NCBI GenBank assembly: GCA_036172245.1
Contig: JAYWIR010000139.1
Location: 1-64,000 of the forward strand
Length of the DNA stretch: 64,000 nucleotides
DNA from: Raillietiella orientalis
Taxonomy: Eukaryota
Direction: 5' to 3'
In this document: positions 7,101-64,000 of the stretch, piece after piece
Layout of the letters: every line of letters begins with the position of its first letter
Position numbering within the stretch: position 1 is the first letter of the stretch
Program-made: the position numbers and the translations under genes
The notes under the pieces: generated by a model
The model's input: only the letters and a program-made list of their open reading frames with translations
Databases searched by the model: none
What the model was told of the DNA's origin: nothing

Positions 7101-7575
7101 GAGAGCATAGGTGCTGATCAAGGTACGCGTGATCGATGTTGCTTTCCATGGCCGTGTCCCCGGCCAACAAGTTGCGCATGTTCATTTCTGCGCACAACTC
7201 GTTGACGCGGTCGTTCAGTGTATCCGGCGCACCTGAAAGCAGGCGCAGGTTGAAATCACCTACGATCAGGTGCGCTTTGCGAACTCCTGCATCGGTCAGC
7301 CAATCGTGTCTCAGGGCAAGGTAGAATTCCCTTCTTGCCTTCGCCCCCAACGCGTTGTTTCCGCTAGGAGCGTATAGGTTGGTGACGACCAGGTCGATAG
7401 AGTCGGTCCAGCTGAGAGTCAGCTGACCGACGCGACCTGCGTCATCGAACCGAACGTCCTTTATTGCAATCTCGATGGCTGGCCGAAACAGGAAGGCGAC
7501 ACCGCTTGATTTCGCGGTGCCGCAACGTCACAACAGCTGCCCACCCGAGATCCGTTCGATCTCCTGCGCTCGTAC
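4142..7575 (-). pseudogene. A1 ORF2 (APE-RT-zinc finger), broken by stops and frameshifts; its N-terminus lies at 28012-28175
   Basis: Motifs VGDFN, IDHAY, SDH, KAPGED, WRPITIVNADAK, QGDSLSP, YADD and CVRCGERENLPHLLVDC. Confidence 0.88.
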
Positions 7576-7687
7576 AGTGCAGACGTGTTTCCGCGTCTTT
7601 CCGCGCCAACGATCGGGCAACTTTGTGCCTGCGTTTTTGCTCGCACTTGTGTGTTCCTGTGCAATCTGCCAAGTAGCATAGTGCAAC

Positions 7688-8933
7688 ATGGCCAGTACAC
7701 AGGATAGTGTGGAAGAGCAAGCCACTGGATGCACTTCAGCTGCACTTGAAGTGGCCGCATCCTCCATAATGGTTTCCTCGCCCCCGGTGAGGAGTTACGC
7801 CGTCGTTACCTCCCAAAGACCAGGATCCTGCGATGCGGAGTTCCAGGCATATGTGTCATCAGGATACATGCCTGCACTCCGTTATAAGGTCAGTGGGCCA
7901 CTTAACGGGAGAATCGGTCCTGAGCTCAATGATGAGCTCGTCCGGATAGGCGTTCGCGAGGAGGAACTCCTTGCCATAATGCCTGCTGGCAGGATGGAAT
8001 ATACGAAGATTCGGTGCAAGAACGCAGCACTTGTGCAGCGCCTTCTCCGTACGCCGTTGACCATCAATGGCAAGGAAGTCCTACCTACGACGATTGACGA
8101 CTCTTTTGTCGTTCAATTGTGCGACATCGAACCGGAAATCTCCGACCGCGATGTCGTAAGTGTGCTGGCGAAGTTCGCCACCGTGCACGCTCTGTGGAGG
8201 AGGCCAAATCCTCTTAAGGATTTTCCCTCTGTCCACATTGGACAAGCCTCCGCGCGGATCACCGTCGCGAACAGGCGTGTTGTGCCTGAGCAGCTGCAGG
8301 TGAACGGCACGGTCGTTCACCTGTGGTTCATAGGCCAGACTCGCGCGTGCGAGCAGTGCGGCAAGGAGGGGCACCGAATTAAAGAGTGCCCCTCTCCAAG
8401 ATTCCGCTATTGCAAAGATTCCGGCCACGAAATCAAAAAGTGCCCGGTACTTGCAAGAAAAAGAGCCGCAGCGGAAATTCGTCGGGTTCAAGAGACCACT
8501 GCACGAAAAGCCGCAGCGGCAAATAAAAAACGTCGTCCGCAAAAACTCGAAAACAACCACGAGCGATCCGCGGATAAAAAGAAAGCATCCCCGCCCGCAA
8601 CGCCCCGAAAGGGGAAAGTCACGGCGGGTAAGCCAACTAAAAAGGGGCGCGAGGGTTTGACGCGTGCCGTGCCTTCCCTCTCTGCCGAACTCGCAGGCAC
8701 ATTTCCGAGCCTGGAACCAGGAAATCTCCGTAACACCCTGGAAGGAAAGGTAGGAAAACAGGAAGATCGCAACAGTGCGAAGACTTCTTGCCCCGTTCCA
8801 TTGTCCCTTCGGAGTTCCGGACAGCCCCACTGCAGCGAAGGCCCCACTGCAAAGGCTACGAAAGCCGTAAAAAGCAGCGTCGCGACGAGCAAAAGCACGC
8901 TGCATGCAGTCGCTTCATCGCCGAGTCGGAAGG
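7688..8933 (+). pseudogene. C2 ORF1, gag-like protein, interrupted by B1; continues at 25829-25950
   Basis: ATG at 7688. Knuckles CEQCGKEGHRIKEC and a degenerate FRYCKDSGHEIKKC. Homologous to C1 and C3 ORF1. The listed ORF beyond 8933 is read-through into the B1 3' UTR. Confidence 0.85.
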
Positions 8934-9067
8934 TTTCCCCAAGTCCCACAAGGTGTGGGGTAAGTTTATTTTTCTACAAAAATACAAAATTTACATTCGC
9001 ACTCTCATTCACTCAATACAAACATTTTGCACTTGGGGGTCCTTGGGTTGCACTAGTGTTCTGCTTT

Positions 9068-12000
9068 TCAGGGGGAAATTCCAGCTGGATGGTCCCGGGC
9101 GTCGTCCCGGATCCTCTTCAGGATGAATCGGTACGTCCAGGAGTGGATCTTCCCGCAGTTCCTGATGCCGATTTCCCTCTTCAAGTGCCCTTGTAGGATC
9201 TCCATCGGTGGTGCGACTCTCCTGGCTTTCCTCATTTTCCACCACCGCACAAGTATGGCGGTGATGAAGAGGGCTATGGTCGTCCTCACCATGGGATTGT
9301 AACAGGGAACATTACCATCCCCATGAAACATCCCGGCGAGGATCTCCATAACGGACTTGTTGGTAAGTCCTATGATCCTTTTCAGGATCAGTCAGTCATG
9401 CAGCAGTGTGAGACACGTCAAGACGTGAAGTCTCGTGTCGTCGTCTCCACATGCTGCGCAGTCTCGGTCTTGCCGTCTTCCTGTGAAGTGCTGCAATCGG
9501 GACCCACTCTGGATTCCTCCGTGATAAAACATCAGGAGGTCATCCTGGGTGCCCGACGGAAGGTCACTCCTCCAGAGCGTCGTGCCGATCGCTAACAGGT
9601 TGAACCGTTCACTCCCGTAGCGTTCGGTGGCTTCCTGGAGGGCACTGGTGTCACGGTCGTTTTCTTGGATAAACCTTCGGAGGTTTGTTCTGGTTACCCT
9701 CGACCAAGCGAAGTCGTTGTGGTTGAACCACACTTCGCGGGTCCTGTGGGTAAACCTTCCTAACATCATCTCTGTATACCGAAGTATACGTGTTTGATGT
9801 AGGTAGCCTCCTCGCCTCCACTCCTGGATTTGCAGTAGGGTAACTCTGGACCGCTGGTACATCCAGCTTCTCGTGTCCGGCGGGACAGGAAGCAACCAAG
9901 GGATCACCAGGATGGACTCGTCCTGCCAGAGTTCCCTGCTTCGCGGCACGATCTTGATTTGGTGCTTCCGCACCAGCCGTTGCTTCCTCCTCCAGGTCGG
10001 GTCGATTGTTATCCATTCCCCTACTTTGCCTAGCAGCGCAGTCATCACGCCTTTCGAGTTGTTAAGCAACAACGCGTAGGCCCTGTGCGCCGCATACGGC
10101 CAGTCATCCCAGTAAGTGACAATGTCCAGGATGTGTCGCGTATCCATGATTTCCATGGAATGTGCAAGCGACTTCATCCCGGAACCGCCTTCTTACCTGG
10201 GACGACAAAGGGGTTTCAGTCTTACTCTTGGGCGATAGTGGCCCCAGAGTGTTTTTCTTTGCAGCTTGTCGAACTCCCTAGTAGTGTCCTTGTTCATCCT
10301 AGCGAAGGCCGCCCCGAAGAGCACTTTCGGAAGGAGTACTCCGTTCCATATGTTGGCTTTTCGCTTTATCCCAAGGTCCGTTCGGGTGTACTTGGCTGCT
10401 TCCTTGGCCGTTTTCCCCAGGATTTCTTTCCACAGCAGCTTCGACGCAGAGCCGTCGCCGATGTAGACTCCCAGGTACTTGGCCGTGTCCACCGTACGGA
10501 ATCCACTATCCGTTAGAGTGGATAGATCCAGTATTCCGACGGGCAAAAGCTGGCTCTTCTGGGAATTGATTTTTAAGCCCAAGCCCTGTTCCATCTGGTC
10601 CACCACATCCAGAAACGCACGCTGATTTTTCTCTCCCTTGATGAAGAAGAGTAGATCATCGGCGTATGCCAGATGAGTAAGACGCTGGCTATCGATGGTA
10701 ATCCCGCTTAGTCGTCCGCTCTTCTCGATAAAGGACGACAACGCCTCCATATAGATGACGAACAGCATCGGACTTAGCGAGTCGCCCTGTCGGACTCCTC
10801 GTTCCATCCTGATTGCTGCCGTCTCCTGGCCGTTGATCTTGATCCGGCAGTACTGGTTCTGGAGCACCGCCCTCACGAAGTTGCTGAAGTGTTTCGGAAG
10901 CCCTAGCTTCTCCAGAACCTTCAGCAGCTTCCCGTGGTCGATGGAGTCGAAGGCCTTCTCCATGTCAGTGAACACCAGCACCAGGTTCTCGCCGACGTAT
11001 CGACTGAGTCCAACAGTGGCCTGGGCACATTTGACATTGTCCGACATGTGTCGTCCTGGGACTGCACATGTCTGGACCGGAGAGATCAGCCTCGACATGA
11101 CCTTGCCTAAGCGGTTGGACCAGATCTTCGCCAACCACTTGACATCGGAGTTTAGAATCGAGATTGGCCTCCATTGGGCGATCTGGGTAGAGTCGCCTCC
11201 TTTCGGCAGCAATCTCATCCGACTCTCGTAGAAGGACCGAGGTAGTCTGCCTTGTTCCCGGATGCAGAGGGTCAACTGGTGGAACAAGCGCAGGTAGGCG
11301 TGCAGGTACCGCTGATAGTGCGTGATGGGTACACTGTCAGGGCCCGCTGCCACGTCCTTGCGAAGTTGCCCAAACGCAGTCTTCACCTCTTCTTCGGAGA
11401 ACTCCTCCTCCAGTCTGTTCCGCTGGAGGTCGTCGGTCCTCTTCTCGAGATAGCTCGAGAAGGCCTGTTGACTAGAGCGACACAGCTGTTGTCGCCTGAA
11501 GTGTTTCGTGTAATGCCTGTGAAAGGCATCCACGATGTCCTCAGACGACTGTCGCTTTTGGCCGTCGTACTGGATGCAGAAGATATCTGTTGCCAGATTT
11601 CTCTTCTCCAGCACGCTGACTTCCCCTTTTATGTTATTGAGGACGTACCGTCTCTCGTACTGATCGAAGTACTTTGAGAGGGAGCGATCTTGGATGTTCA
11701 GCTCCCGGTACGCCTCTTGCCTCAAGCGCCTATCCCCGAACTGCATGTTCGCAAACAGGTGTATCCTGTGTTTCAGGCTGTCCCAGTCGGCGACTCTTCG
11801 GATTGTTGGTGCCCTCAGAATCGCCTCCAGGACAGCCTGATGTCCGGGATGGGTTTCGAACCGGGCGGGCATGCTGATGAGCGCTGCCCTGGTGCCTTGC
11901 CTCCGCCGAGGATTCTCCGTTCTTAGGGAAAACCGCACCAGGGGGTGATCGGACACCGTAGTCATAGTGTCGCGAAACCCCTGGATGCGGTTCCCAAGTT

Positions 12001-12586
12001 CGGTGCTGTGCAGGACGTGATCGATTGGCTTGTGGCTTGCTGTTCGCCAGTCCAGTCCGAACTCCTCGGATAGCCGTCGATACGCCGTCCTTCCTCTGGC
12101 GTCTTCCGAATGAATGATCTCATCCAAGATGTTGAGATCGCCAGCAACTATCATGACGTCCTTAGGGGCGACCTTTTGCCGGAGTGTTGCATGCAGCGCC
12201 TCCGCACAATGATGTTTTAGCCTGTGCGGCCCGTACACGTTCACCAGGATAAGGTGAACAGTCGCGGACCAGGCCAGTCGCACGCCGATGATTCGTCCGG
12301 GTTGGGGACAGAACACTTCCAGAATAGTGGGGGCTAAGTGGTTCTTTATTAGCACCGCCACACCCTTCGTGTTCCGTTCCCCTTCGTTGACGAACATCTG
12401 CCCGTTGAATCGCCGTTCCATTCGTTGGCTTATCTCCAGACCCATCCTGTGGGACTCCTGCAGGCACACGATGTCTTGTTGTGCGATGGTCCGCACAATC
12501 CTTCTTCTTTTTCCCTGGTCGACCACACCGTTTACGTTCCAGGAGGCGATGTTAATCCTCCTGGCGGTCGATAGGGAAGAGGCCAT
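9068..12586 (-). pseudogene. B1 ORF2 (APE-RT-zinc finger) with two in-frame nonsense codons (10193-10195 TAA, 9392-9394 TGA)
   Basis: Collinear with the intact B2 ORF2, which has GAA and TGG at these codons. Motifs SWNVNG, CLQE, GDLN, SDH, QGDSLSP and YADD. Confidence 0.92.
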
Positions 12587-12599
12587 AAAAGGGGAAGAC

Positions 12600-14387
12600 C
12601 TATTTTTTGGCCTTCCTGAGCTTCTTCTGTCTGAGAGAGCGTGCTCTTCCAGACAATGAAGAAGCAGCGGGCTTCTCGCTGCCGGCGTCACTCTCCGTAC
12701 CTGTGAGGTCGGTAATTTCCGCCTCCTCCGTAGAGTGTTCCGCCTGCGCGATCAATTTTCGAGATAGCGCCTCTATCTCGACCTTGGCGCAGAAGTTCGC
12801 CTTCACGTCGAGAAGCTGTTCCTCTAACTTCTCGCGTTCAGCGACATCCACCACCTGGTTGATGTTCTCTTGTGCAGTGCAGATCTTCTGCAAGATTTTC
12901 TCTTGCTGAGGACCGCTCTGCACCTCCATGATCTCCTCCGCCAGTGTTGCCAACTCCTCCGTAGTCTGCAGAGCCTCCTGCGACACTTTAGTGGCTTCCT
13001 GTCTCTCTTCCTTCGCGCCTTCCTGCGCTACCTCCATCTTCTCGCCTTCCTGCTCTGCTGCTTCCTGGATTTGAGGAGTTCCTTGCTCCTTGACGAGCAT
13101 CCTCCTTTTTCCCTTCTTTCCCACTTCTATGAAGCCGTCCGCCGACACCGGGACAGCTTCTTTCACTTTTTTCTGCCTTCCTGCCTTCTGAGGCTGTTCG
13201 GCCTCCTTGATGTTTCTCTCTCTCACGGGAGAGAGACCTCGAATCCTTCTGCAGTTTTCAAACTCCGGACAGCTCCATTTCGCATGTCCGTGTTTCTTGC
13301 AAAAGGAGCACACCTCCGGATGCGGGCAGTTTCGGACTTGATGTCCTACTTTGCCGCAGCGGAAACAACGACACGTTGGGCAAGAGCCGGTTCTGTGACC
13401 GAACTGCTTGCATCCAGTGCAGAATACCGGTTGTTGCCGGTAACGCACATTCACTCCCTGGGATTGTTCGTCAATAACGGCCAATCCAGGGATCACCGCT
13501 TCCTCCCTCAACTTCATCTTGGCGATCATGTCGCCAGAAAATATGTTTCCAGAGAAGTTCTGGAAATCAAGGTCCAGAACTTCCCCAAACTGCTCCAAGT
13601 AATTCCACACCGCTAGTTGCGGGGTGAGGATGGAGATGCCGTTTAAAAAGACGGTTGTGTATGGCATCTCGCCAATTCCACAAACCATCCGTCCTTGTAT
13701 ATTGATCCCCTTCTGGATCAATCGCTCTCTAATGTTTTCACAGTCTGTAAAGACTGTGAACCCGTTGTTTGATGGAATGATCGCCTGAATGCGATCAAAG
13801 TCTATGTCCGTCTTGTCGAGGGACAAATAGACCTCCCTGATGTTATTAAATTTTATTAGCCCCTTCTTGAAGATAATGGGCTTCACGTTGGGGCCTATTT
13901 CGACTATTGGTCGGTCCACTTTTAGTACTTTTCCGCTAAGCGGCTTACCGAATTTCCTAGGTGGGTGGACACTCGCCTGTCCAGCCGCCACCGACGCATA
14001 AGAAAAGGGCTGCGACGCCGCAGCCGAACAAGATGGCGTCGCTCCCTGCACCTCGTAGACGCCCGCGGGTCCCGCCTGGGACGCCACCGCCGCGGGCGCA
14101 AACCTCGACGTTGCCGCCGTTACCGCTGCGGGCGGCACCCTCGGCATCGCCGCCGCAGGCGCGACCTTCCTCGCCGCGGGCACGATCCTCGGCGTCGCCG
14201 CCGCGGGCACGACCTCCGCCGTCGTCGCCGCGTGCACGACCCTTGGCATCGCCGCCGCCGGCGCAGCAAAGCCCGCCGCGGGCGCGATCCTCGGCATGCC
14301 TGCCACCGCCTCGCCGTTGCCGCACGTTACCTCCATGGCTTCCATGGGGGACGACGGTCTCTCCACTCCTCTTCTAGGTGCCTGCAT
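12600..14387 (-). CDS. B1 ORF1, intact 595-aa gag-like protein (Ala/Pro repeats, RRM-like region, three CCHC knuckles, Glu/Lys-rich probable coiled-coil tail)
   Basis: Knuckles CTGCKQFGHRTGSC, CFRCGKVGHQVRNC and CSFCKKHGHAKWSC. The stop lies 13 nt upstream of the likely ORF2 ATG at 12586. Confidence 0.9.
   Translation of the reverse strand: MQAPRRGVERPSSPMEAMEVTCGNGEAVAGMPRIAPAAGFAAPAAAMPRVVHAATTAEVVPAAATPRIVPAARKVAPAAAMPRVPPAAVTAATSRFAPAAVASQAGPAGVYEVQGATPSCSAAASQPFSYASVAAGQASVHPPRKFGKPLSGKVLKVDRPIVEIGPNVKPIIFKKGLIKFNNIREVYLSLDKTDIDFDRIQAIIPSNNGFTVFTDCENIRERLIQKGINIQGRMVCGIGEMPYTTVFLNGISILTPQLAVWNYLEQFGEVLDLDFQNFSGNIFSGDMIAKMKLREEAVIPGLAVIDEQSQGVNVRYRQQPVFCTGCKQFGHRTGSCPTCRCFRCGKVGHQVRNCPHPEVCSFCKKHGHAKWSCPEFENCRRIRGLSPVRERNIKEAEQPQKAGRQKKVKEAVPVSADGFIEVGKKGKRRMLVKEQGTPQIQEAAEQEGEKMEVAQEGAKEERQEATKVSQEALQTTEELATLAEEIMEVQSGPQQEKILQKICTAQENINQVVDVAEREKLEEQLLDVKANFCAKVEIEALSRKLIAQAEHSTEEAEITDLTGTESDAGSEKPAASSLSGRARSLRQKKLRKAKK
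14060..14310 (-). repeat. Imperfect GC-rich coding repeats in B ORF1 (AAAMPRVxPAA-type units); equivalents at about 19700-19940, 25320-25560 and 58570-58800
   Basis: Recurring CTCGGCATCGCCGCCG and CCGCGGGCACGA motifs; the repeated peptide is visible in the translation. Confidence 0.75.
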
Positions 14388-14570
14388 CCTGGCAGCTGGT
14401 CTTGCTGCACGGGACCACTGCAGGTCTTTTGCTGCGATCTCCTCGCCGCTTCTTTTCTAGTTTCGTATGGAAAACTTCCCCTCTCCGGGCACACACGAGC
14501 ACAATTAACTGATTACTTTGTCAAGCGCACAATACTTTGAGCCGCGGAGCAAGTTCACCGACTCGGCAGG

Positions 14571-17500
14571 TTTCCCCAAGTCCCACAAGGGGTGGGGTAA
14601 TTTTATTTTTCTATAAAAATACAAAATTTACATTCGCACTCTCATTCACTCAATACAAACATTTTGCACTTGGGGGTCCTTGGGTTGCACTAGAGTTCTG
14701 CTTTTCAGGGGGGAATTCCAGCTGGATGGTCCCGGGCGTCGTCCTGGATCCTCTTCAGGATGAATCGGTACGTCCAGGCGTGGATCTTCCCGCATTTCCT
14801 GATGCCGATTTCCCTCTTCAAGAGCCCTTGTAGGATCTCCATCGGTGGTGCGGCTCTCCTGGATTTCTTCATTTTCCACCACCGCACAAGTATGGCGGTG
14901 ATGAAGAGGGCTATGGTCGTCCTCACCATGGGATTGTAACAGGGAACATTACCATCCCCATGAAACATCCCGGCGAGGATCTCCATAACGGACTTGTTGG
15001 TAAGTCCTATGATGCTTTTCAGGATCAGCCAGTCATGCAGCAGTGTGAAACACGTCAAGACGTGAAGTCTCGTGTCGTCGTCTCCACATGCTGCGCAGTC
15101 TCGGTCTTCCCGTCTTCCTGTGAAGTGCTGCAATCGGGACCCACTCTGGATTCCTCCGTGATAAAACATCAGGAGGTCATCCTGGGTGCCCATCGGAAGG
15201 TCACTCCTCCAGAGCGTCGTGCCGATCGCTAACAGGTTGAACCGTTCACTCCCGTAGCGTTCGGTGGCTTCCTGGAGGGCACTGGTGTCACGGTCGTTTT
15301 CTTGGATAAGCCTTTGGAGGTTTGTTCTGGTTACCCTCGACCATGCGAAGTCGTTGTGGTTGAACCACACTTCGCGGGTCCTGTGGGTAAACCTTCCTAA
15401 CATCATCTCTGTATACCGAAGTATACGTGTTTGAGGTAGGTAGCCTCCTCGCCTCCACTCCTGGATTTGCAGTAGGGTAACTCTGGACCGCTGGTAGATC
15501 CAGCTTCTCGTGTCCGGCGGGACAGGAAGCAACCAAGGGATCACCAGGATGGACTCGTCCTGCCAGAGTTCCCTGCTTCGCGGCACGATCTTGATTTGGT
15601 GCTTCCGCACCAGCCGTTGCTTCCTCCTCCAGGTCGGGTCGATTGTTATCCATTCCCCTACTTTGCCTAGCAGCGCAGTCATCAGGCCTCTCGAGTTGTT
15701 AAGCAACAACGCGTAGGCTTTGTGCGCCGCATACGGCCAGTCATCCCAGTAAGTGGCCATGTCCAGGATGTGTCGCGTATCCATGATTTCCATGGAATGT
15801 GCAAGCGACTTCATCCCGGAACCGCCTTCTTCCCTGGGACGACACAGGGGTTTCAGTCTTACTCTTGGACGATAGTGGCCCCAGAGTGTTTTTCTTTGCA
15901 GCTTGTCGAACTCCCTAGTAGTGTCCTTGTTCATCCTCGCGAAGGCCGCCTTGAAGAGCACTTTCGGAAGGAGTACTCCGTTCCATATGTTGGCCTTTCG
16001 CTTCATCCCAAGGTCCGTTCGGGTGTACTTGGCTGCTTCCTTGGCCGTTTTCCCCAGGATTTCCTTCCACAGCAGCTTCGACGCAGAGCCGTCGCCGATG
16101 TAGACTCCCAGGTACTTGGCCGTGTCCACCGTACGGAATCCACTACCCGTTAGAGTGGAGAGATCCAGTATTCCGACGCGCAAAAGCTGGCTCTTCTGGG
16201 AATTGATTTTTAAACCCAAGCCCTGTTCCATCTGGTCCACCACATCCAGAAACTCACGCTGATTTTTCTCTCCCTTGATGAAGAAGAGTAGATCATCGGC
16301 GTATGCCAGATGGGTAAGACGCTGGCTATCGATGGTAATCCCGCTTAGTCGTCCTCTCTTCTCGATAAAGGACGACAACGCCTCCATATAGATGACGAAC
16401 AGCATCGGACTTAGCGAGTCGCCCTGTCGGACTCCTCGTTCCATCCTGATTGCTGCCGTCTCCTGGCCGTTGATCATGATCCGGCAGTACTGGTTCTGGA
16501 GTACCGCCCTCACGAAGTTGCTGAAGTGTTCCGGAAGCCCTAGCTTCTCCAGAACCTTCAGCAGCATCCCGTGGTCGATGGAGTCGAAGGCCATCTCCAT
16601 GTCAGTGAACACCAGCACCAGGTTCTCGCCGACGTATCGACTGAGTCCAACAGTGGCCTGGGCACACTTGACATTGTCCGACATGTGTCGTCCTGGGACT
16701 GCACATGTCTGGACCGGAGAGATCAGCCTCGACATGACCTTGCCTGAGCGGTTGGACCAGATCTTCGCCAACCACTTGGCATCGGAGTTTAGAATCGAGA
16801 TTGGCCTCCAGTGGGCGATCTGGGTAGAGTCGCCTCCTTTCGGCAGCAATCTCATCCGACTCTCGTAGAAGGACTGAGGTAGTCTGCCTTCTTCCCGGAT
16901 GCAGAGGGTCAACTGGTAGAACAAGCGCAGGTAGGCGTGCAGGTACCGCTGATAGTGCGTGATGGGTACACTGTCAGGGTTCGCTGCCACGTCCTTGCGA
17001 AGTTGCCCAAACGCAGCCTTCACCTCTTTTTTGGAGAACTCCTCCTTCATTCTGTTCCGCTGGAGGTCGTCGGTCCCCTTCTCGAGATAGCTCAAGAAGG
17101 CCTGTTGACTAGAGCGACACAGCTGTTGTCGCCTGAAGTGTTTCGTGTAATGCCTGTGAAAGGCATCCACGATGTCCTCAGACGACTGTCGCTTTTGGCC
17201 GTCGTACCTGATGCAGAAGATATCTGTTGCCAGATTTCTCTTCTCCAGCACGCCGACTTCTTCTTTTATGTTATTGAGGACGTACCGACTCTCGTACTGA
17301 TCGAAGTACTGTGAGAGGGAGCGATCTTGGATGTTCAGCTCCCGGTACGCCTCTTGCCTCAAGCGCCTATCCCCGAACTGCATGTTCGCAAACAGGTGTA
17401 TCCTGTGTTTCAGGCTGTCCCAGTCGGCGACTCTTCGGATTGTTGGTGCCCTCAGAATCGCCTCCAGGACAGCCTGATGTCCGGGATGGGTTTCGAACCA

Positions 17501-20185: not shown

Positions 20186-20202
20186 TCACATCAATCGGCA
20201 GG

Positions 20203-25812: not shown

Positions 25813-25950
25813 TCACCGACTCGGCAGGAGAGGTGCAATCTCCCGACTGTCAAGAAGGTGACTCCGTTGCCGTTTTTTAAAGGCGTAGCGAAAGCAACGC
25901 CCCCAGAGAACGCAGCGCAAATCCCGGAGGTTTCCGCAACTACTGTCGCG

Positions 25951-27659
25951 GAATTAGGTAGGGTGACAGCTTAAGCCCGCTGCTCTTCAGCATCTATTTT
26001 GAATTGGTGCTGGAGGCTTACAGGCTGACGCTAGCCAACCTGCCGAGCTCCTGTCCAGGTACGCCGGCCGTGGCAGCCTATGCCGACGACTTGCTTCTCC
26101 TGTTGCCCATTTCCACCCCGGCGACATCCCTTGAAGACTTCTTTGAGTTGATTCGTCGCGGTGCGGGCGTGAGCGTTAACAGGAGTAAGTGTATGGTTGT
26201 TCCGGTGGGTGCGACGTGGGAGGGGCAGTCCGACTGGATCGACCTGGGGATCCCCACGGGCAGGTACCTCAGGTACCTTGGCGTGCCGTTGGGCGACTTC
26301 TGCATCTCAGAAGCGTGGTCGGACTGCCTTCTTAAGGCAGAGCGTGCACTTGGCCCGTTTTCAGGAGGCGAGTTCGTTTTGCCGGAACGGGCCTGCATCT
26401 GGAACACCTTCGTTGCCCCCCTCCTCCGCCCCCTGTTTTTTGTTTGTCCACCCCCCCAGGAAGTCAAAGTCTGGGCGCAGCGCCTTCTACGCAAAGCGTT
26501 GTGGGGCGCTGCAAGATCCCGTGTTAGTCTTAAAGACTTGGTGGCGCCGCGTCAGGATGCAGGCTTGGGCATCCTCGACTTAAACAGCATCGAACTGCAG
26601 GTGCAGTTTCGCATGCTGCGGCTCTGTGCCAAGCTGTGGGGTACGCCGTGGTGCTTACCCGCACGCCTTATACTGAGGCGCTGCACGGGAAGCGAGGGAC
26701 TGCTTTCGTTGCTACCCCACTTTCGGCACACCAGAATAGGGTTTGGCTTCCCGCTGAGGCAGCTGTCCTCACTGCTGGAAGCCCAAAGCTGGATCTCCTG
26801 CCGCCCCATGAACATTAATGCATGGCGGCACGAATCTTTTTCATCGTGGGCAGCTTCCGAAGGAACGCGCCCGGAAGATCTTCGACGCCTGCGACTTCTC
26901 CTCAGTCATCAAATGGACGAAGTCATGCAGGACAAGAAGTTGTCGGATCGTCTGGCCGCCACACCACTCGCCGTAGCGCTGTCTGCTTTCAGGGCAAGCA
27001 ACGACGGTTGCCTACCGGCGGAATGGGAGTTCTCCTGCAAAATAGCGGGAGTCAGTAAGCTCCTCGGCAGCTGGACGACAAAGGAGCTGGTGCAAGCCGC
27101 CACACCTCGGAATCGGGCGAAGGGACTGCTTCGGTGGAGCGAACATTTAAGTGTGCCCCCCGGAGAGATAGTGGTTCTTCCCGTTTGTTTGGACAGCTCC
27201 GTGTTCCCCCTTAAGTGGAAACAAGATGTGCTGCTCTTTTTACATTGTGCATTTCACTGTAATAGGCAGCGAAGCATCGTTTCCGGTGGAGCTGCTTTGC
27301 CAAACTGTTTAAGGTGCGGAGAGATCGAGTCTCTTCCGCACCTTTTGCTGGACTGCGGTGACCTCCGGGAACTGTGGCGAAGGCTCACTTCGGCCATCAT
27401 GCCACAAGGAGGCACTGCCATTGATGTGCTGCGGCGCTTCTTCAGCAGAAATGGACTTTCGGTTGGCGCGATTGTCGCAAACATGTGTTGCGTACGCGCC
27501 ATCGTGAAGGCCCCCTACGCCCTGGAGTTTTCATCGCAGCGAAGGGAGGCTCACCTGCTTGCAGCTCAATTCATAAAGAAGGCTTCAAGGTGGTCTCATC
27601 TTCGTGACAAGGTGAATGAGGACATCACCGGCATACATCGCCGGTTTACACACCTTTGA
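25951..27659 (+). pseudogene. C2 ORF2 remnant (C-terminal half of RT plus zinc finger)
   Basis: Motifs GDSLSPLLF, YADD, RYLG and CLRCGEIESLPHLLLDC. Collinear with C3 at about 61610-63314. Confidence 0.9.
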
Positions 27660-51900: not shown

Positions 51901-53426
51901 TTAAATCACCTGCGATCAAGTGCGCTTTACGAACAATTACTCTGGTCAGTCATTCGAATCCGAGGGCAAGGTAGAATTCTCTAATAGCCTTAGCCCTCAA
52001 CGCGTCGTTACTGCTAGGACCGTACAGGTTGGTGACGACCACGTCGATTGAGTCGGACCAGCTGAGAGTCAGCCGAACGACGCGACCGGCGTCATCAAAC
52101 CGTACGTCCTTTTTGCGGCCTCGATGGAAGGCCGGAGCAGGAAGGCGACACCTCTTAATTTCGCGGTGCTGCAGCGCCACAGCAGCCATCCACCCGAGAT
52201 CCGTTCCATCTGCTGCGTTCGCACAGTGCAGACGTTTTCGCGTCTCTCCGCGTCCGCGATCGAGCATCTTTGTGCGTGAGTTTTCGCTCGCAATTGTGTG
52301 TTTCATGGAAGTGGACGAAGCAGCGTTGTGCAGCATGGCCACTTCTGGAAATGGTGTGAAGGAGACAGCCGTTGAATTCGAATCAATTGAAATGGAAGCG
52401 GCTGCATCCTCCGTGACGGTTTCCTCGCCTTCAATGAGGAGCTACGCCGCTGTCACCTCCCAGAGAGCATGACCCTGCGCTGCGGAGTTTTAGGCTTATG
52501 TGGCATCCGGCTGCATGCTTGCACTCCGTTTTAATGTCAGTGGGCCCCTTAACGGGAGGATCGGGCGAGCTCAACGACGAGCTCTTCCGGATCGGGGTTC
52601 GGGAGGAGGAGCTTCTTGCCATCATGCCTGCAGGCAGGATGGAATATACGTAGATACTAGATAAGTGTGCTGGTAAAGTTCGCCACCGTGCACGCTCTGT
52701 GGAGGAGGCCCAATCCTCTGAAGGATTTCCCCTCTGTCCACATTGGACAAGCCTCCGCGCAGATCACCGTCGTGAACAGGCGTGTTGTGCCCGAGAAGCT
52801 GCAGGTGAAAGGCACGGTCGTTCACCTGTGGTTTATAGAACAGAATCGCGCGTGCGAGCTGTGCGGCAAGGAGGGACACCGAAAGAAGGAATGTTCCACC
52901 CCGAAATTCCGCTGCTGCAAAGAAACCGGGCACGAAATAAAAAAGTGCATGGTCCTTGCAATGAAAAAAGTAGCAGCGGAAGTTCGTCGCGTTCAAGATA
53001 CCAACGCACGAAAGGCCGCTGCCCCCAAGAAAAAACAGTGTCCGCGGAGTCTTGGCAAAAGACCCAAGCAATACGCTGCTATACAAAACGCGTCCCCGCC
53101 CGCAACGCCCCAAAAGGGAGAAATCGCGGCGAAGAAGCCATTTCAAAAGGGGCGCGAGGGCGCGACGCGTGCCGTGCCCGCTCTCGCTGCCGTACTCGGA
53201 AGCAATTCTCCAAGCCAGGAACCAAGAAATTTCCGAAGACCCTCAGTAGGAAAGGTAGGAGAGCAGGAAGATCGCCACCGGGCGAATACTTCCAGCTCTA
53301 ACCCGCTGTCCCTTCGGAAATCGGCAAAGTCCCAATCCTACGCAGGGGCCTCTGCGTAGGATAGTCGCCAGCGGCGCGCCGTGCGAAATCACTCTGCAGA
53401 CAGTCGCCCCTTCACCGACTCGGCAA

Positions 53427-56400
53427 TTTTCCCTAAGTCCCACAAGGAATGGGTTGAATTTATTTCCCATTTTTTAAAACACATTCATTCTACAATCACA
53501 TTCATACAACATACCCACTTTACATCACTCTGAATTTCCTGAGGATATTACAAGTTCTGCTTTCAGGTTCGGTTTCCACATGTTTGTTCCCGGGCGTCGT
53601 CTTCAATCCTCTTCAGGATGAATCGGTAGGTCCAGGCAAGGATTCGCCCACAATTCCTCATGTCGATCTCCTTCTTGATGAGTCCTTAAAGGATCTCTAT
53701 CATAGGTGCGGCTCTCCTGGCTTTCCTCATCTTCCACCACCGCACAAGTATGGCGGTGATGAAGAGGCTTCCTCACCATGGGATTGTAACAGGGAACATT
53801 ACCATCTCCCTGAAACATCCCGGCGAGTATCTCCATTGTGGAGCTGGTGGAGAGTCCAATGATCCTTTTCAGGATCAGCCAGTCATGCAGCAGTGTGGGA
53901 CACGTCAAGACGTGAAGTCTCGTGTCGTCGTCTCCACATGCTGCGCAGTCTCGGTCTTCCCGTCTTCCTGTGATGTGCTGCAATCGGGACCCACTCTGGA
54001 TTCCTCCGTGATAAAACATCAGGAGGTCATCCTGGGTGCCCTGCGGAAGGTCACTCCTCCAGAGCGTCGTGCCGATCGCTAACAGGTTGATCCGGTCACT
54101 CCCGTAGCGACCGGCGGCTCCTTGTAAGGCACTAATGTATCGATCGTCTTCTTTGATGAGTCTTCGGAGGTTTATTTTGGTCACCCTGGACTACGCGAGG
54201 TCGTTGTGGTTGGTCCACACCTCGCGGGTCATGTGGTTGAACCTTCGTAACATCATCTCTATAAACCTAAGTATACGAGTGTGGTGTGGGTAGCCTCCTC
54301 TTCTCCACTGCTGGATTCGAAGCAGGGTAACTCTGGACCGCCTGTAGATCCAGCTTCTTGTGTCCGAGGGAACCGGAAGCATCCAAGGCATCACCACGAT
54401 AGACTCCTCCTTCTAGAGTTCCCTGCTTTGCGGTACAATCTTGATTTTGTGCTTTCGCACCAGTCGTTGCTTCCTCGTCCAGGTTGGGTCGATTTTTTTC
54501 CATTCGCCTGCTCGGCCTAGCAGCGCAGTCATCAGACCTTTCGAGTTGTTCAACAACAACGCGTAGACCCTGTGCGCCGCATAAGGACAGTCATCCCAGT
54601 GAGTGGCAATGTCCAGGAAGTGTCGCGTATCCATGATTTCTATGGAGTGTTCAAGCGACTTCATCCCGGAACCGCCTTCTTCCCTGGGACGACACAGGGG
54701 TTTGAGCCGTACTCTTGGTCGGTAATGGCCCCACAGTGTTTTGCGTTGCAGCTTTTCGAACTCCCTCGTGGTTTCCTTGTTCATCCTCCCGAAGGCCGCT
54801 CCGAAGAGTACCTTTGGAAGGAGTACTACGTTCCACAGGTTGGCCCTTCGCTTCATCCCAAAGTCCAGTCAAGTGTATTTTGCTGCCTCCTTGACCGTTT
54901 TCCCCAGGATTTCCGTCCACAGTAGCTTCGACACGGAGTCGTGGGCTGTGTGGACTCATAGGTACTTGGCCGTGTGTACCGTACGGAATCTGGTTTTCGT
55001 GAGGGCGGAGAGATCCTGTATTCCGACGGGCAAAAGCTGGCTGTTCTGGGCATTGATCTTCAAGCCCAGTCCATCTTTCATAAGGCTCTCCACATCCAGG
55101 AACGTTTGTTGATCCCTCTCTCCTCTTATGAAGAAGAGGAGATCGTCGGAGTAGGATAGATGGGTGAGCTTCTGGTCGTCTACGTTCACTCCGTTCAAAC
55201 GTCCGATCTTCTCGACGAAAGAAGAGAGCGCCTCCATTTAGATAACGAACAGCATCGGACTTAGCGAGTCGGCCTGCCGAACTCCTCGTCCCATCCGAAT
55301 GACTGCCGTTTCCATTCCATTGATTTTAATCCGGAAGTGTTGATTCCGTAGGATCATTTGCACGACGAAGCTGAAGTATTCTGGAAGTCTTAGCTTTTCC
55401 AAAATCTTCAGCAGCATCCCGTGGTCGATGGTGTGGAAGGCTTTCTTTATGTCTGTGAACGCAAGCACCAGGTTCTCGCCGACGTATCGGCTAAGTCCCA
55501 CGATAGCTTGAGCGCACTTGACATTGTCCAGCATGTGGCTCCAGGGTACCGCACACGTCTGAACAGGAGATATCAGCCTCGACATATCTTTGCCTAAACG
55601 GTTGGCCCAGATCTTTGCCAACCACTTGGCATCCGAGTTAAGGATCAAGATTGGCCTCCATTGGCCTATCCTGGATAGGTCGTCTCCTTTCGGCAACAAT
55701 CTCGTCCTGCTCTCGTTGGAGGACTCCGGCAGTCGTCCTTCTTGTCGGATGCAGAGGGTCAACTGGTGCAATAAACGCAGGTAGGAGTGCAGGTACCTCT
55801 GATAATGAGAGATGGGGACATCATCAGGGCCTGCTGCCACGTCCTTGCGTAATTGACCGAACGCAGTCTTCACCTCTTCTTCGGTAAAATGCTCCTCCAG
55901 TCTCTTCCGCTGGAGGTCGTCAAGCTTCTTTTCAAGATAGCCCAGGAAGGTGTTTGGCGTAGCCAGATACAGTTGTTCGCGTCGAAAGCGTTCCGTATAA
56001 TGCCTTTCGAAGACATCTACGATATCTTCAGACGTGTGTCGACTTTGATTACCGTACTGGATGCAGAAGATATCTGTTGCCAGATTTCTCTTCTCCAGCA
56101 CGCCGACTTCCCCTTTTACATTATGGAAGACGTACCGTCTCTCGTACTCCTCGAAGTACTTGGAGAGTGAGCGATCTTGGATGTTCAGCTCACGGTATGC
56201 CTCCTGCCTCAAGCGCCTATCCCTGAATTGCATATTTGCAAACAGGTATATCCTGTGTTTCACGCTGTCCCAGTGGGCGACTTTTCTGATTTTTGTGGTC
56301 TTCAGAATCGTTTTCAGGACCTCCTAATGTCCAATGTGTCTCGAACCAGGCAAGCATGCTGATGAGCGCCGCCCTGGTGCCTTGCCTCCGCCGAGGATTC

Positions 56401-59074
56401 TCCGTTTTTAGGAAAAACCGCACCAACGGGTGATCGGACAGAGTGGTCAATGTGTCTCGAAAATCCTGAATGCGATTCCCTAGTTCGGTGCTGTGAAGGA
56501 CGTGATCGATCGGCTTGTGACTTGCTGTTCGCCACACCAGTCAGAACTCGTCCGACAGCCACCGAAACGCCTTCTTCCTGAGGCGTCCTGGAATCTTGTG
56601 TGTTCGTCTAGGATATTAAGATCGCCAGCAACGATCACGACGTCCTTGGACGCGACCTTCTCCCGGAGTGCTGCATACAGTGCCTCCGCACATCGATGTT
56701 TGTACCTGTGTGGCTTGTACACGTTTACCCAGGAAAGGTGAACGTGAGGGGTCCAGGCCAGTCATACGCCGATTATACGTCCCTGCAAGCGACAGAAGAT
56801 TTTCAGAATGGTAGGAGCCAGTTGGTTCTTGACCAAGACCTCCACACCCTGCGTGTTTCGTTCTCCTTCGCTGACGAGCATCTGCTCATTAAAACGTCGT
56901 TCCATTTGCTGGATGATTTGGACACCCAACGTGTGGGTCTCCTGCAGGCACACGATGTCTTGCCGATGTCTTGTTGTGCGATGATCCGCACAATCTTCTT
57001 TCTCTTCCTCTTGTCGACTAACCCATTTACGTTCCAGGAGGCGATGTTGATGTTCCTGGCGGTCGACAGGTATTAGGTAATAAAGGGGAAGACAGACTTT
57101 TTGGCCTTCCTGAGCTTCTTCTGTCTGGGAGAGCGTGCTTTTCCAGACGATGAAGAAGGAGCGGGTTTTGCAGCTAGCAGCGTTATTCTCCGTCCCGGTG
57201 AGCTCGGTGAATTCAGCCTCCTCCGTAGAGTGTTCTGCTCGCGCGATAAGTTTCCTAGGTATATCCTCTATCGCCACCTTTGCGCAGAAGTTCGCCTTAA
57301 TGTCGAGAAGCTGTTCCTTTAGTCTCTCGCGCTCGGTAACTTCCACCACCTTATTCACCGTCTCCTGTGCGTTGCAGATCTTCTGCAGGATTTGCTTTTG
57401 CTTGGGCCCGCTTTGCACCTCGATCACTTCTTACGCCAGTTTAGCCAGCTCTTCGGTGGACTGCAGGGCCTCCTAAGACAATGGAGTGGCTTCTTTTTCC
57501 ACCTTTGCTTCTTCCAGTGCTGTCTCCATTTTCTAGCCTTCCGCTGCTCTTTCTGGGGTAAGAGAGGCTTTCTGCTCCTTGATGAGCATCTTTTTCTTTC
57601 CCTTTTTACCGACTTCAATAAGACCGTTCGCCGATACCGGCAAGGCTTCCTTAGTCTTCTTCGGCCTTCCTGCCAACTTTTGAGGCCCTTCCGCCTCTTT
57701 TATATTCCTGTCTCTCACGGGAGAGAGTCCTCTGATCCCTCTACAAATGGCGAATTGAGGGCATCTCCATTTACCGTGCCCATGCGTCTTGAAGAAGGAA
57801 CAAACCTCCGGCTGCGGCAGTTTTGGACTTGTTGTCCTATCTTGCCGCAGCGGTAGGATCGAGATGTTGAGCAAGCGCCTGCCCTGTGGCCAAACTGCTT
57901 GCATCCAATGCAAAATATTGGCGGTTGCCGATAACGCACTTTCACACAATGTGATGGCTCATCAATGACTGCTATCCCAGGGATCACCGCGCCTTCCTTT
58001 AATTTTATGTTGGCGATCATGTCGCCAGAAAAGATTTTTCCTGAGAAGTTCTCGAACTCGAGGTAGAGAACTTCCCCAAACTTCTCCAAGTATTTCCACA
58101 CCGTTAGTTGGAGTGTGTAGATGGATATGCTATTTGAAAACACGGTCGTGTATGGCATCTTGCCAACGCCACAAACCATCCTTACTTGAATATTGATCTT
58201 CTTCTGGATCAATCCTTCCCTAATGTATTCACAGTCCGCGAAGACCGTGAACCCGTTGTTGCTGGGAATGATTGCGTGGTTACGATCAAAATCTATGTCT
58301 GTTCTGTCTAGAGACAGATATATCTCCCTGATATTGTTGAACTTTATCAATCCAGTCTTAAAAATAGTAGGCTTCACCTCTGGCCATAACTGGACGATAG
58401 GCCGATCTACCTTTTTGACTTTCCCTCTTAGACGTTTGCCGAATTTTCTTAGCGGATGCACACTGACCTTCCCCGCCGCCACCGATGCGTTCGAAAACGG
58501 CTGCACCTCCTCAGCCGAGCAAGATGGCGTCGCATCTTGCGCTCCCTGCACAGTGTGGACGCGCGCTGGTCCCGCCTGGGACGCCGCCGCGAGCGCAACC
58601 TCGACGTTGCCGCCACCGCTGCTGCGGGCGCAACCCTTGGCATCGCCGCCGCAGGCATGTCCGTTGCCTCCGCGGGCGCGATCCTCGTCGTCAACGCCAC
58701 AGGTACGACCTTCACCGTCGCCGCCGAAGACGCGATCCTTGGCATCGCCGCCACCGGCGCAGCGAAGCCCGCCGTGGGCGCGATCCTCGGCATCGCCGTT
58801 GCCATACGTTACCTCCATCTGCAAGGGGACGTCGGCCTCTTCTCTCCTGCTAATGCCTGCATCCTTGCAGCTAAAACTGCCGCTGAGGAAGTTTGAAGGT
58901 CTTCCGCTGTGATCTCCTCGGCGCTTCTTTTGTAGTTGTATGAGCAGATCCTACGCAGCACACTCTTGTCCACACTCACTTTCTTCTGGAAACTTTTTTT
59001 CTCCGGGCACACACGATCACAATTAACTAATCAACTGTCGTCGTGCGCGCTATACACTGAACCTTGAAGCCAGT
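53427..59074 (-). mobile_element. Family B copy B4, full-length, divergent subfamily, both ORFs broken
   Basis: Collinear with B1 but has many substitutions and a different 3' UTR interior. Flanked by TCACCGACTCGGCAA (53412-53426) and TTACCGAATCGTCAA (59075-59089). Confidence 0.9.
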
Positions 59075-59747
59075 TTACCGAATCGTCAACAAAGGAGCAA
59101 TCTTCCGACTTCCAAAAAGGCGACTGCGCTACCTCCTTTTCAAGGCGTGGCGAAAGCTACGCATTTAGATACGGTAGCGAAAACTCCGAAGGTTTCCGAG
59201 ACGAAAGTCGCGGAAGCTTCCGGAAATCGTAACGGCAAGTGGGAGATTGTCGAGAGGAGAAAAGAAAAATCTCACAGGAAGGCTTCGCAACCTCCATCTG
59301 TTAGCTGTTTTAAGGCAAACAACAGCCGCGTGAAGAAGAAAACCCGCGCGGAGGGTTCTTCTGCCCTGGAAAAAGCCAGCGCTGTCAACGCGTGCAATTT
59401 CGCCTCTATGACCGCCGAGCAAACGATTCCGGTGCGATCGGACGGATGCAAGCGCACGCCAATCGTGCGAGCATCAGATTCCGTAAAGGAGTCCTATAAC
59501 GGCGCTCAACGACGTGTTACTGGCACGGGATCGAGAATTTGCAGGGCTGACGCCGTGAGGCGTGATACACACTCCGCGGAACGGCGAGTGCTCTCCCCGG
59601 GACCCGTAGGTTCCGCACTCGGGGAGAAGCACCGATTACGCGCAGCACGGTGGAGACCGGTGGCAACCGCTCCCTCCATCCCTTCGTACTGTCTGCTGCC
59701 CGCTCGCCGGGAGAGGCGAGCACCACGGCCTCGCTATCCCAGCCGTG

Positions 59748-62700: not shown

Positions 62701-63314
62701 AAGGGAGTCAGTATGCTCCTCGGCTGCTGGACGACAAAGGAGCTGGTGGAAACTGCCACGCTTCGTAATCGGGCGAAGGGCCTGCTTCGGTGGAGTGAAC
62801 ATTTAAGTGTACCCCCCGAAGAGATAGTGGTCTCCCTCGTTGGTTTAGACAGTTTCTGTACCCCTTAAAGTGGAAACAAGATGTGCTGCTCTTTCTACAC
62901 TGTAGCTTTTACCGTAATAGGCAGCAAAGCATCGTTTCCGGGGGATCTGCGGTGCCAAACTGTTTGAGGTATGGAGAGTTCGAGTCTTCTCCGCACCTCT
63001 TGCTGGACTGCGGTGACCCTTGTGAACTGTGGTTAAGGCTGATTGCAGCCATCCTGGCGCGAAGAGGCACTGCCATTGATGTGCTGCGTCGCTTCCTCAG
63101 GAAAAATAGATTTTCAGTAGGCGCGATTGTCGCATCCATGTGTTCCATTCGCGCCATCGTGAAGGTCCGCTACGCCCTGGAGTTGTCAGCGCAGCAAAGG
63201 GAGGTTCACCGGTTCGCAGCAGAATCCATGGAAAAGGCAGCAAAGTGGCCTCATCATCGTGACGTGCTCAAAGAGAACATTGCCGGCATCCACGGCCGGT
63301 TTACAAACTTTTAA
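59748..63314 (+). pseudogene. C3 ORF2 (APE-RT-zinc finger), fragmented; YADD decayed to YAND
   Basis: Motifs CCNLNG, AGDFN, SDH, WRPITLVNSDVK, DLHKAYD, QNDSLSP and RYLG. Confidence 0.87.
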
Positions 63315-64000
63315 GAACATATTAATTCGGTGATCACTACGTCCTGAATTCAACCCTTACCCCTCACCCGCTCGCTCTGCTAAACTGCCGGTGCCATTAC
63401 TTTCATCCCGGTGCGAACCATAGCGATCCCAAAGACCCTTGTCCCGGCGTCCCCCATTGATTTTTTTTTTTTTTGTTTTTGTTTGTTTGTGTTGCTACTT
63501 CCCCCACACCATTCTGTGTTATTCTGGCCTGCGTGCCAGGAATTTTCTCTTCATCAACCTTCAGTCGTCGGTTCGAAGCATCGTTCTTAGCTGGTTTATT
63601 TTATATAACTGTTTTTGTTTATATTATATGATACAAACGTCCCGACGTGACCGAGTGAGAAATCTCCGTTGCTTGGTGTGAAAAGATCACGCGGATCTCT
63701 TCAGTAGCACCGGAGGGAAGAGGCGATTTCCGGCATTAAGGCTGGGAACGTGGCGTTGCAGCACCTGTCAAGTGACAGGCGGGAGGGACGAGTATGGGGA
63801 CCGCAGCCATCTCAGGCACTTGACTCACCTGGGGCACAGACTCTAACCTTTCCCTCCCTCCGTCGTCGCAGCGTGGGGTCACCTCTGGAGGAGAGTCCCA
63901 GGAGTTTCCCACTTTCTTCGCACGTTCGCTTCTCTCGATTATCTCTCCCTTTTCCACGGACGGGATAATTTTGCGGGTAGCCTTCTTCGTACGACTGGTC

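Follow-up and report, generated by a model that had tools for sequence, protein, structure and literature searches.

Probable independent antisense insertions of one LINE family at a single site of another within a retrotransposon nest of Raillietiella orientalis

The first 64,000 nucleotides of contig JAYWIR010000139.1 from Raillietiella orientalis (assembly GCA_036172245.1, forward strand; this whole stretch is referred to below as the window) have a G+C content of 52-60% and consist almost wholly of a nest of retrotransposons of the long interspersed nuclear element (LINE) type, encoding an apurinic/apyrimidinic endonuclease (APE) and a reverse transcriptase (RT). Self-comparison and protein mapping of this 64-kb window revealed two stacks of like build, in each of which an element of family A is interrupted by one of family C, which is itself interrupted by family B (A > C > B). 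In stack 2, A2 (minus strand) is split by C2 (plus strand, 7576-28011), and C2 by three B units (minus strand); in stack 3, A3 (minus strand) is split by C3 (plus strand, 52225-63661), and C3 by one B unit (minus strand). Both stacks have identical junctions, and neither is a duplicate of the other. It is quite probable that a sequence-specific C element entered two distinct A lineages independently, and that B entered C in the same manner.

The element map was drawn from Pfam profiles, tblastn and self-comparison, and junction coordinates were set by exact string look-up. A preliminary description of this DNA had listed 17-mers flanking the C copies, a C terminus AGTGCAGAC and a TGCAGAC just beyond the right-hand repeat of C2; exact look-up and direct reading found all of them in place. 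It had also held that C lies at homologous positions of the two A copies, that C is site-preferring and that the entire A > C > B architecture occurs twice, and the junctions bear out each of these points. The repeat pair flanking C2 matches at 15 of 17 positions, including 12/12 over the first 12. The pair flanking C3 matches at 8/17, by itself near chance; because both C3 flanks align base for base with the C2 flanks, the C3 insertion point is the same A nucleotide as that of C2. Both C events (2/2) lie at one base of A and in one orientation, with C on the plus strand antisense to A on the minus strand. Without C and without one repeat copy, A2 reads ...NVNGMTDAGRRPDMAAILGSFDLALLQEIHVMSAEQAQEIERISGG, a rejoined reading also given as ...WNVNGMTDAGRRPDMAAILGSFDLALLQEIHVMSAEQAQEIERISGG. 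The site falls in codons E-Q-A-Q-E-I of the N-terminal APE part of A, directly behind the LLQE motif, and both family-A copies of the window that retain this region (2/2) carry C there. B is antisense to C and lies at an identical C base at both loci, in the 3' part of the first open reading frame (ORF1) of C, flanked in each stack by 17-nt target copies (Table 1). The A|C 5', C 3'|A, C|B 3' and B 5'|C junctions are all base-identical between the stacks. Contigs of public sequencing runs were compared with 8301-28300 at 80% likeness: run X1 holds 38% of the sampled words, a 595-nt contig of a public run spans the C|B junction (8626-9220, 22 differences), and runs X2 and X3 gave short spurious matches only.

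Copying of a finished stack by segmental duplication would be expected to leave neutral, uniform and equal divergence, with a ratio of nonsynonymous to synonymous divergence (Ka/Ks) of about 1 and equal branches; the divergence found between the stacks departs from this expectation. Ka/Ks was obtained from pairwise alignments by a simple counting method with bootstrap intervals. Between A2 and A3, the ratio was 0.39 (bootstrap 0.30-0.50) over 5887-7527, with 78/66/115 differences at the three codon positions, and 0.49 over 4310-5068 (45/37/54). C2 and C3 gave 0.45 over the RT and C-terminus (59/46/82) and 0.52 over ORF1 (65/64/97), and B gave 0.31 for ORF2 (187/158/311) and 0.21 for ORF1 (98/87/217) between stacks. 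The bootstrap intervals of all six stack comparisons lie below 1. The control, a comparison of the neighbouring units B1 and B2, gave 1.14 (33/30/29), and reading the alignments in either shifted sense frame gave 0.92-1.40; the only other low ratio came from the one antisense frame whose third positions coincide with those of the true frame. Along A, the ratio was 0.25-0.58 in 6/6 windows of 100 codons, with an even Ks of 0.26-0.41. Judged from these alignments, inter-stack divergence appears to carry the mark of purifying selection in every layer, A, C and B. Mutational bias was rejected as the source of the low ratios, since the shifted sense frames give about 1, and since changes are far fewer at first positions, although their G+C content (0.54-0.64) is close to that of third positions (0.57-0.68). 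A spectrum resembling repeat-induced point mutation was excluded by the 322:209 ratio of transitions to transversions in A.

Identity between the stacks also varies by region. It is 83.6% in A ORF2 and about 62% upstream of the A ORF2 start, 78.0% in the 5' part of C, 86.4% in the 3' part of C, and 79-80% in B. Between C2 and C3, the leader has an identity of 0.69, the surroundings of the knuckle 0.92, the RT core 0.95-0.96 and the 3' untranslated region (UTR) 0.71-0.73. Divergence distributed in this way tracks function rather than a clock. The rates differ as well. In relative-rate tests, A3 had 249 unique sites to 137 in A2 when the A-like element A6 served as outgroup (chi2 32.5), and 200 to 139 with C', the sister family of C, as outgroup (chi2 11.0); the 3' part of C gave 123 for C3 and 82 for C2 (chi2 8.2), and the 5' part gave 66 for C3 and 60 for C2, which is no difference. 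Terminal branches in RT-core trees were 0.15 for A3 vs 0.044 for A2, 0.074 for C3 vs 0.013 for C2, and 0.19 for the stack-3 B copy (Bc3) vs 0.010-0.017 for B1 and B2. The preliminary description had named congruent trees with equal branch lengths as the sign of a duplication; the stack-3 branches are longer.

The lesions of the two stacks are likewise their own. In the compared stretches, C2 is free of stops and frameshifts; C3 carries 6 stops and 5 indels that shift the frame. In Bc3, 13 stops and 14 such indels were counted over both ORFs, and ORF2 of B2 runs open through 1227 codons. A2 has two frame breaks, at places where A3 is open, and the breaks of A3 fall where A2 is open; no inactivating lesion is common to the stacks. 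An A element split by C cannot stay under selection, and A2 and A3 would therefore have parted as intact, active elements, so that the C insertions within them would be separate events. By the same logic of selection, the insertions of B into C would be separate too.

A single nesting followed by copying of the whole stack as DNA and subsequent decay, with later gain of two more B units and loss of 2.4 kb of C in one copy, would explain why all four junction kinds are identical, why overall identities are of one order (80-86%), why the left repeat copies share two states absent from the right copies, and why the two stacks point the same way at a distance of 45 kb. Dead copies drift neutrally, however, and Ka/Ks is 0.21-0.52 in all three layers, against 0.92-1.40 in shifted sense frames and 1.14 in the control. 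Regional identities spread from about 62% up to 96%, equal branches are rejected (chi2 32.5, 11.0 and 8.2, with no difference in one of the four tests, that of the C 5' part), a B2 ORF2 open for 1227 codons is unexpected after some 10% of neutral decay, and the stacks have no inactivating lesion in common. Such a duplication is accordingly regarded as very unlikely. It is also unlikely that C (with B) entered one A copy once and then spread by ectopic conversion or recombination through A flanks, its interiors being overwritten later. Flanks drawn from different A copies would account for both the shared left-copy states and the poor match of the C3 repeats (L3 and R3), and exchange is visible in the C RT core (Ks 0.035) and in the mosaic B array. 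This course of events requires near-complete overwriting of three nested layers with junctions left intact, however, and the Ks between A2 and A3 is even (0.26-0.41), with a low ratio in 6/6 windows, up to the junction; identity on the junction side (0.81-0.86) equals that of the rest of A, with no conversion tract there. Chance coincidence of sites among LINEs that merely accumulate in one chromosome region, as Zepp and Celine do, would suit a window that is a LINE nest throughout. The same base and strand in a 5.9-kb element would be hit about once in 12000, yet this is seen for C in A and for B in C, and C' occurs twice at one site of an A-like element; moreover, the region-targeting Celine has a unique target-site duplication (TSD) for each copy, according to the excerpted text of PMC11288735. 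A merely regional preference is considered extremely improbable.

Several observations weigh against independent insertion. The number of C events is two (n=2 in the window), and L3 and R3 agree at only 8/17 positions. The left repeat copies of both stacks, L2 and L3, have C at position 13 and A at position 16, where both right copies have T and T, the state that encodes the conserved E-Q. Shared left-copy states are exactly what a single ancestral insertion gives; if the insertions were independent, these bases must have been carried by C or copied from its cDNA. Over RT codons 201-300, the Ks between C2 and C3 is down to 0.035 (Ka 0.029), with 0.36 on both sides, and these copies are therefore subject to recombination or gene conversion: the RT core of C2 and C3 has apparently been exchanged or shares a recent ancestor, as a conversion tract or through recombinant ancestry. 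This low-Ks tract spans 26560-26860 in C2 and 62216-62516 in C3. A near-target, TCGATCTCCTGGGCG, with 2 mismatches in 15, lies empty at 43277-43291 in A6. Finally, the mosaic of clean and decayed stretches in the B array shows that its history was no simple series of insertions. The stretches of C3 and C' that are homologous to the C target site are far more diverged from the target than is the near-target of A6.

The 5' end of C bears on the origin of the left-copy states. At locus 2, the 14 nt CGTACAGTGCAGAC comprise the last 5 nt of the left repeat and the C 5' end, and match 10 of the 12 target bases TGTTCTGCAGAC with one 2-nt gap, a quality reached by 3.4e-4 of 400000 random 12-mers of the window. 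The left-copy states common to both loci speak for 5' attachment by homology as well. Three findings count against the idea that C attaches its 5' end by homology: the corresponding 7-mer at locus 3, TGAAAAG, matches at 4/7; C' shares the C 5' end (AGTGCGGACG) in another target to which it has no such similarity; and the 5' end of B has no similarity to its target. Given independent insertions, it may be that the duplication is only 12 nt long (ATCTCCTGCGCT, 12/12 at C2) and that the next 5 nt, CG(T/C)AC, belong to C. The end of the overhang may instead have paired with the cDNA end and been corrected to the element's version, or the RNA of C may carry a target-like leader, by analogy with melanogaster-type R1 elements as described in the excerpted text of PMC2718515. 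The evidence speaks on both sides of the use of target homology by C, which we consider possible if rather doubtful. The reading of TGCAGAC as part of a 24-nt TSD was rejected, as the 5' end of C' in its unrelated target is likewise AGTGCGGACG; AGTGCAGAC is therefore the element's own 5' end.

The three B units of stack 2 lie head to tail, separated by target copies. In B2, ORF2 is intact and ORF1 carries 12 frame-shifting indels; in B1, it is ORF1 that is intact, and ORF2 carries 2 stops; ORF2 of B3 has 11 frame-shifting indels and 6 stops, with patches of 87-89% identity between stretches of 96-99%. B1-B3 are mosaics, and this pattern points to recombination or gene conversion, either among units of the array or involving copies elsewhere. 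The array target copies at 14554-14570 and 25812-25828 are identical, and the copy at 8917-8933 deviates from them at 4/17 positions, at which the 14554 and 25812 copies agree with the stack-3 copy at 53411-53427. The deviation fits a target-like leader in the B RNA, an argument weakened by the mosaic history of the array. The array has presumably grown by repeated insertion, by unequal exchange or by both.

If C did enter two A lineages independently, its endonuclease would nick the bottom strand, antisense to A, at G|ATCTCC within the E-Q-A-Q-E-I codons; target-primed reverse transcription from an RNA ending in ...GGGUGAGAA would insert C, and a second nick 12-17 nt further on would give rise to the 12-17-nt target duplication. 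This would have occurred twice, in A copies that were already distinct lineages. B would act likewise on C, antisense, at ...TCT|CCTGCCGAGTCGGTGAA in the 3' part of C ORF1. Each insertion would regenerate the target, and B could land again beside itself to give the head-to-tail trio; growth of the array by unequal exchange may follow, as in the R1 arrays treated in the excerpted text of PMC5932611. It is presumably the endonuclease that makes the choice of site, by analogy with R1, Tx1 and L1 (PMC4494074, PMC2718515, both in excerpt), and the order of the nicks given here is likewise presumptive. A broader and more tentative proposal, which we regard as possible but less likely than not to hold in full, is that these LINEs form a guild whose endonucleases read each other's conserved codon blocks, and that the RNAs of C and B may also begin with a copy of the target. 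Under this proposal, C would read E-Q-A-Q-E-I of A, B would read the tail of C ORF1, C' would read G-D-F-N, and another lineage would read G-F-G-E-G. The nest would then build itself, and the elements would avoid host genes. Were the RNAs to start with a target copy, the element would serve in part as the template of the upstream "duplication", and its 5' end would be joined by homology, which would explain both the like left/right differences at two loci and the 4/17 deviation of 8917-8933.

By their protein domains and layout, A, C and B appear to be three lineages of APE- and RT-encoding LINEs with an L1/Tx1-like architecture. An APE N-terminal to RT in ORF2, a mark of APE-type LINEs, was found in the families of the window. 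In B, Exo_endo_phos (2e-15) and RVT_1 (2.2e-33) fall within a single 1227-aa ORF. A2 passes the cut-off for Exo_endo_phos (27.0 bits, cut-off 24.5) and lies below that for RVT_1 (25.6 bits, cut-off 29.6); the two matches extend over 5887-7527, with a weak zf-RVT match over 4142-5068. The C' APE domain was found at 7.8e-12, the RT of C2 gave a weak match of 21.2 bits against the 29.6 cut-off, and the APE and RT of C3 were detected by tblastn. The zf-CCHC matches in ORF1 of B and of C, at 20.1 bits, are slightly below the Pfam cut-off of 20.8. Repeats of 12-17 nt, of the kind that LINEs leave as target-site duplications, flank C2 and the B units, and a repeat search of the window found no terminal repeats of the kind seen in long terminal repeat (LTR) elements. 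The poly(A) or simple-repeat 3' tail usual in L1 was not seen, there being no A run in families A, B and C; their 3' termini, ...GGGTGAGAA in C, ...GGGGAAA in B and ...TTTCAATG in A, each follow AATAAA and a G+C-rich stretch. None of the 3' ends examined (3927, 28011, 33256, 33734, 48234 and 8934) has a poly(A) tail. Five of the six (A2, A4b, A6, C and B) consist of AATAAA, about 25 nt of G+C-rich and partly self-complementary sequence, and a short family-specific end; the A4 end has AATCTAC in place of AATAAA.

Searches beyond the window placed these families in no narrower group. The B ORF2 protein had 25 hits, the best relatives being 24-28% identical and either generic or without clade names, and the C' APE region had no hit at E<=1e-10. 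A protein atlas search returned generic RVT_1 and Exo_endo_phos clusters only. A metagenome scan gave 0 matches with the C 3' end and 5 loci with the B 3' end, all of them chance matches of 20-28 nt with no wider similarity. No rRNA or other Rfam family reached threshold anywhere in the window, and no ribozyme like that of hepatitis delta virus was recognised around the C 5' end, where no Rfam family appeared at E<=1.

Table 1. Coordinates of the elements, target copies and repeats that make up the two stacks.
Feature	Position	Strand	Remarks
Stack 2: A2 3' part (rest of APE, RT, C-terminal region, 3' UTR)	3927..7558	-	Pfam, tblastn, 3' end read
L2, left target-repeat copy of C2, ATCTCCTGCGCTCGTAC	7559..7575	+	first 12 nt = right copy
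C2 5' part, begins AGTGCAGACG at 7576	7576..8916	+	106-nt leader, then ORF1
Target copy, 3' side of B array, CCTTCCGACTCGGCGAT in B sense	8917..8933	-	4/17 differences vs copies at 14554 and 25812
Three head-to-tail B LINEs: B1 8934-14553, B2 14571-20184, B3 20203-25811	8934..25811	-	
Inter-unit target copies in B array	14554-14570, 20185-20202		one between each unit pair
Target copy, 5' side of B array, CCTGCCGAGTCGGTGAA in B sense	25812..25828	-	
C2 remainder: 125 nt of ORF1 tail, ~2.4-kb internal deletion, RT core, C-terminal region, 3' UTR	25829..28011	+	
R2, right target-repeat copy of C2, ATCTCCTGCGCTTGTTC	28012..28028	+	TGCAGAC next, 28029-28035
A2 5' part: APE N-terminus (MPGISFRRRLRIAVWNVNGM...LLQEIHVMSA) and ~170 nt upstream	28029..28370	-	
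Stack 3: A3 3' part, second family-A copy, cut 3' at 48965	48965..52207	-	83.6% identical to A2
L3, left target-repeat copy of C3, ATCTGCTGCGTTCGCAC	52208..52224	+	then AGTGCAGACG at 52225
C3 5' part: leader and decayed ORF1	52225..53410	+	
Bc3, one decayed B copy (53428-59073), and its flanking 17-nt target copies (53411-53427, 59074-59090)	53411..59090	-	
C3 remainder: ORF1 tail, APE, RT, 3' UTR, terminus ...GTGACCGAGTGAGAA	59091..63661	+	
R3, right target-repeat copy of C3, ATCTCCGTTGCTTGGTG	63662..63678	+	8/17 vs L3
A3 5' part: APE N-terminus with 88-nt deletion, and upstream sequence	63679..63930	-	

Within stack 2, the 3' terminus of A2 at 3927 reads ...CCCGGGTTTCAATG, and the roughly 170 nt upstream in its 5' part are still homologous to A3, at about 62% identity. 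ORF1 of C2 has its ATG at 7688-7690 in a frame open from 7682 and encodes a weak CCHC knuckle, and the 3' terminus of C2 is ...GTGACCGGGTGAGAA. The 1227 open codons of B2 ORF2 lie at 14705-18388, B1 ORF1 (12600-14456) is open for 618 codons, and the B 5' terminus is CTTGCTCC. The stacks differ in that stack 2 has three B units and stack 3 has one; in that about 2.4 kb of C (APE and 5' RT; C3 59216-61603) is absent in C2, with the break at 25953/25954; and in that A3 is without 88 nt of the APE N-terminus (A2 28077-28164, A3 at 63707). No more than 125 nt separate the gap in C2 from the B array.

The sister family C', at about 70% identity to C, shares both of its termini, AGTGCGGACG (5') and ...GTGACCAAGTGATAA (3'). 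One copy, at 37075-42973 on the minus strand, interrupts an A-like element in sense orientation at the codons G-D-F-N and has a 9-nt repeat, ATT(T/C)CAATC; the nick would again be G|AT(T/C)TC, with the motif ATCTCCGTCTGC six bases later. As C' is in sense and C in antisense orientation, orientation would be set by the strand bearing the motif and would follow no rule of its own. A second, 5'-truncated copy lies at 1382-3585 on the plus strand, with its 3' junction (3585/3586) as in the first. The two C' copies are thus found at one base of the A-like element; their bodies are 94.6% and their 341-nt host flanks 93.0% identical, and they may be a duplicated pair. No empty B site was obtained in C', whose ORF1 tail does not align with C.

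Other A-like elements of the window are nested as well. A2, with its 3' end at 3927, is antisense within an A-like APE fragment (3586-3937), whose homology to the copy at 36734-37074 ends exactly at ...GGAATCTC|. The A-like element that bears C' (3' end 33734) is in turn antisense in another A-like element (33225-33770 and 45180-45330), which is split at ...PWVFG | ...KGFGEGP in the linker between endonuclease and RT; a repeat of some 10 nt, GGGT(A/T)TTCGG, accompanies the split. The break in a third element, at 29258-31683, falls at the same protein position (PWVFG | KGFGEG).

Among the known targets of sequence-specific LINEs are rDNA, telomeres, small RNA genes, microsatellites, and a small number of DNA and LTR transposons. 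A limited search of the open-access literature, which is no proof of absence, returned no description of LINEs that target the coding sequence of sibling LINEs. If the proposed site choice is true, autonomous LINE families that, in a chain, use one another's fixed codons to land in would represent a new kind of safe-haven strategy, and would offer a simple mechanical account of dense LINE-only nests, including ones like those at some algal centromeres. They would also provide natural pairs of endonuclease and target with a specificity of 12-17 nt.

Among known systems, as described in excerpted sources, LINEs of the Tx1 clade enter fixed places of other transposons, sometimes in tandem with a sandwiched TSD; examples are Tx1L in the piggyBac-type Tx1D, Tx1-Mar in Mariner-N4_AMi and Tx1-9_AMi in Harbinger, and two Tx1-clade families target LTR retrotransposons (PMC4494074). 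Like the elements described here, these are LINEs with APE and RT that lie at a fixed point and in a fixed orientation inside another mobile element, and their tandem insertions sandwich the TSD; the target-derived 5' extensions of some Tx1 copies may be listed as a further likeness (PMC4494074). The use of one sequence of a repeated target in one orientation, typical of Tx1 elements, was found in the window too; this likeness is one of behaviour, the nearest proteins being 24-28% identical. The targets differ: Tx1-clade elements enter a DNA transposon, an LTR element, an RNA gene or a microsatellite, whereas here the target is coding sequence of a related autonomous LINE. Unlike in the Tx1 clade, as far as these excerpts describe it, targeting here is chained, B into C and C into A.

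R1, the APE LINE of arthropods that is specific for 28S rDNA, similarly has a rigid 3' junction with a 14-17-nt target duplication, a variable or rule-bound 5' junction, and head-to-tail arrays with the target duplication between units (PMC2718515, PMC5932611, in excerpt), the duplication being retained between the units of R1 arrays (PMC5932611). Transcripts of melanogaster-type R1 carry upstream target sequence that anneals to the target (PMC2718515). The R1 target is rDNA, whereas the target here is another retrotransposon, in LINE coding sequence, and no 28S rDNA was found in the window. Zepp of Chlorella and Coccomyxa, and ZeppL of Chlamydomonas and its relatives, are L1-type LINEs that also enter existing copies and form dense nested clusters (PMC3446292, PMC8226300, in excerpt). 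The wall-to-wall nest of the window resembles theirs, as a feature of behaviour only. Zepp targets its own copies and builds arrays mostly of 3' ends (PMC3446292, PMC8226300), whereas here distinct families hit each other at fixed bases and full-length units occur. The poplar centromeric LINE Celine likewise keeps to one kind of region and is often nested in other retrotransposons; it has a unique TSD in every copy and a regional preference, whereas here the same bases are hit repeatedly (PMC11288735, in excerpt). In function, the families described here are closest to the transposon-targeting elements of the Tx1 clade and to R1, and in appearance they are closest to Zepp-type nests. They stand apart in two respects: what they target is the coding blocks of autonomous sibling LINE families, and targeting runs in a chain.

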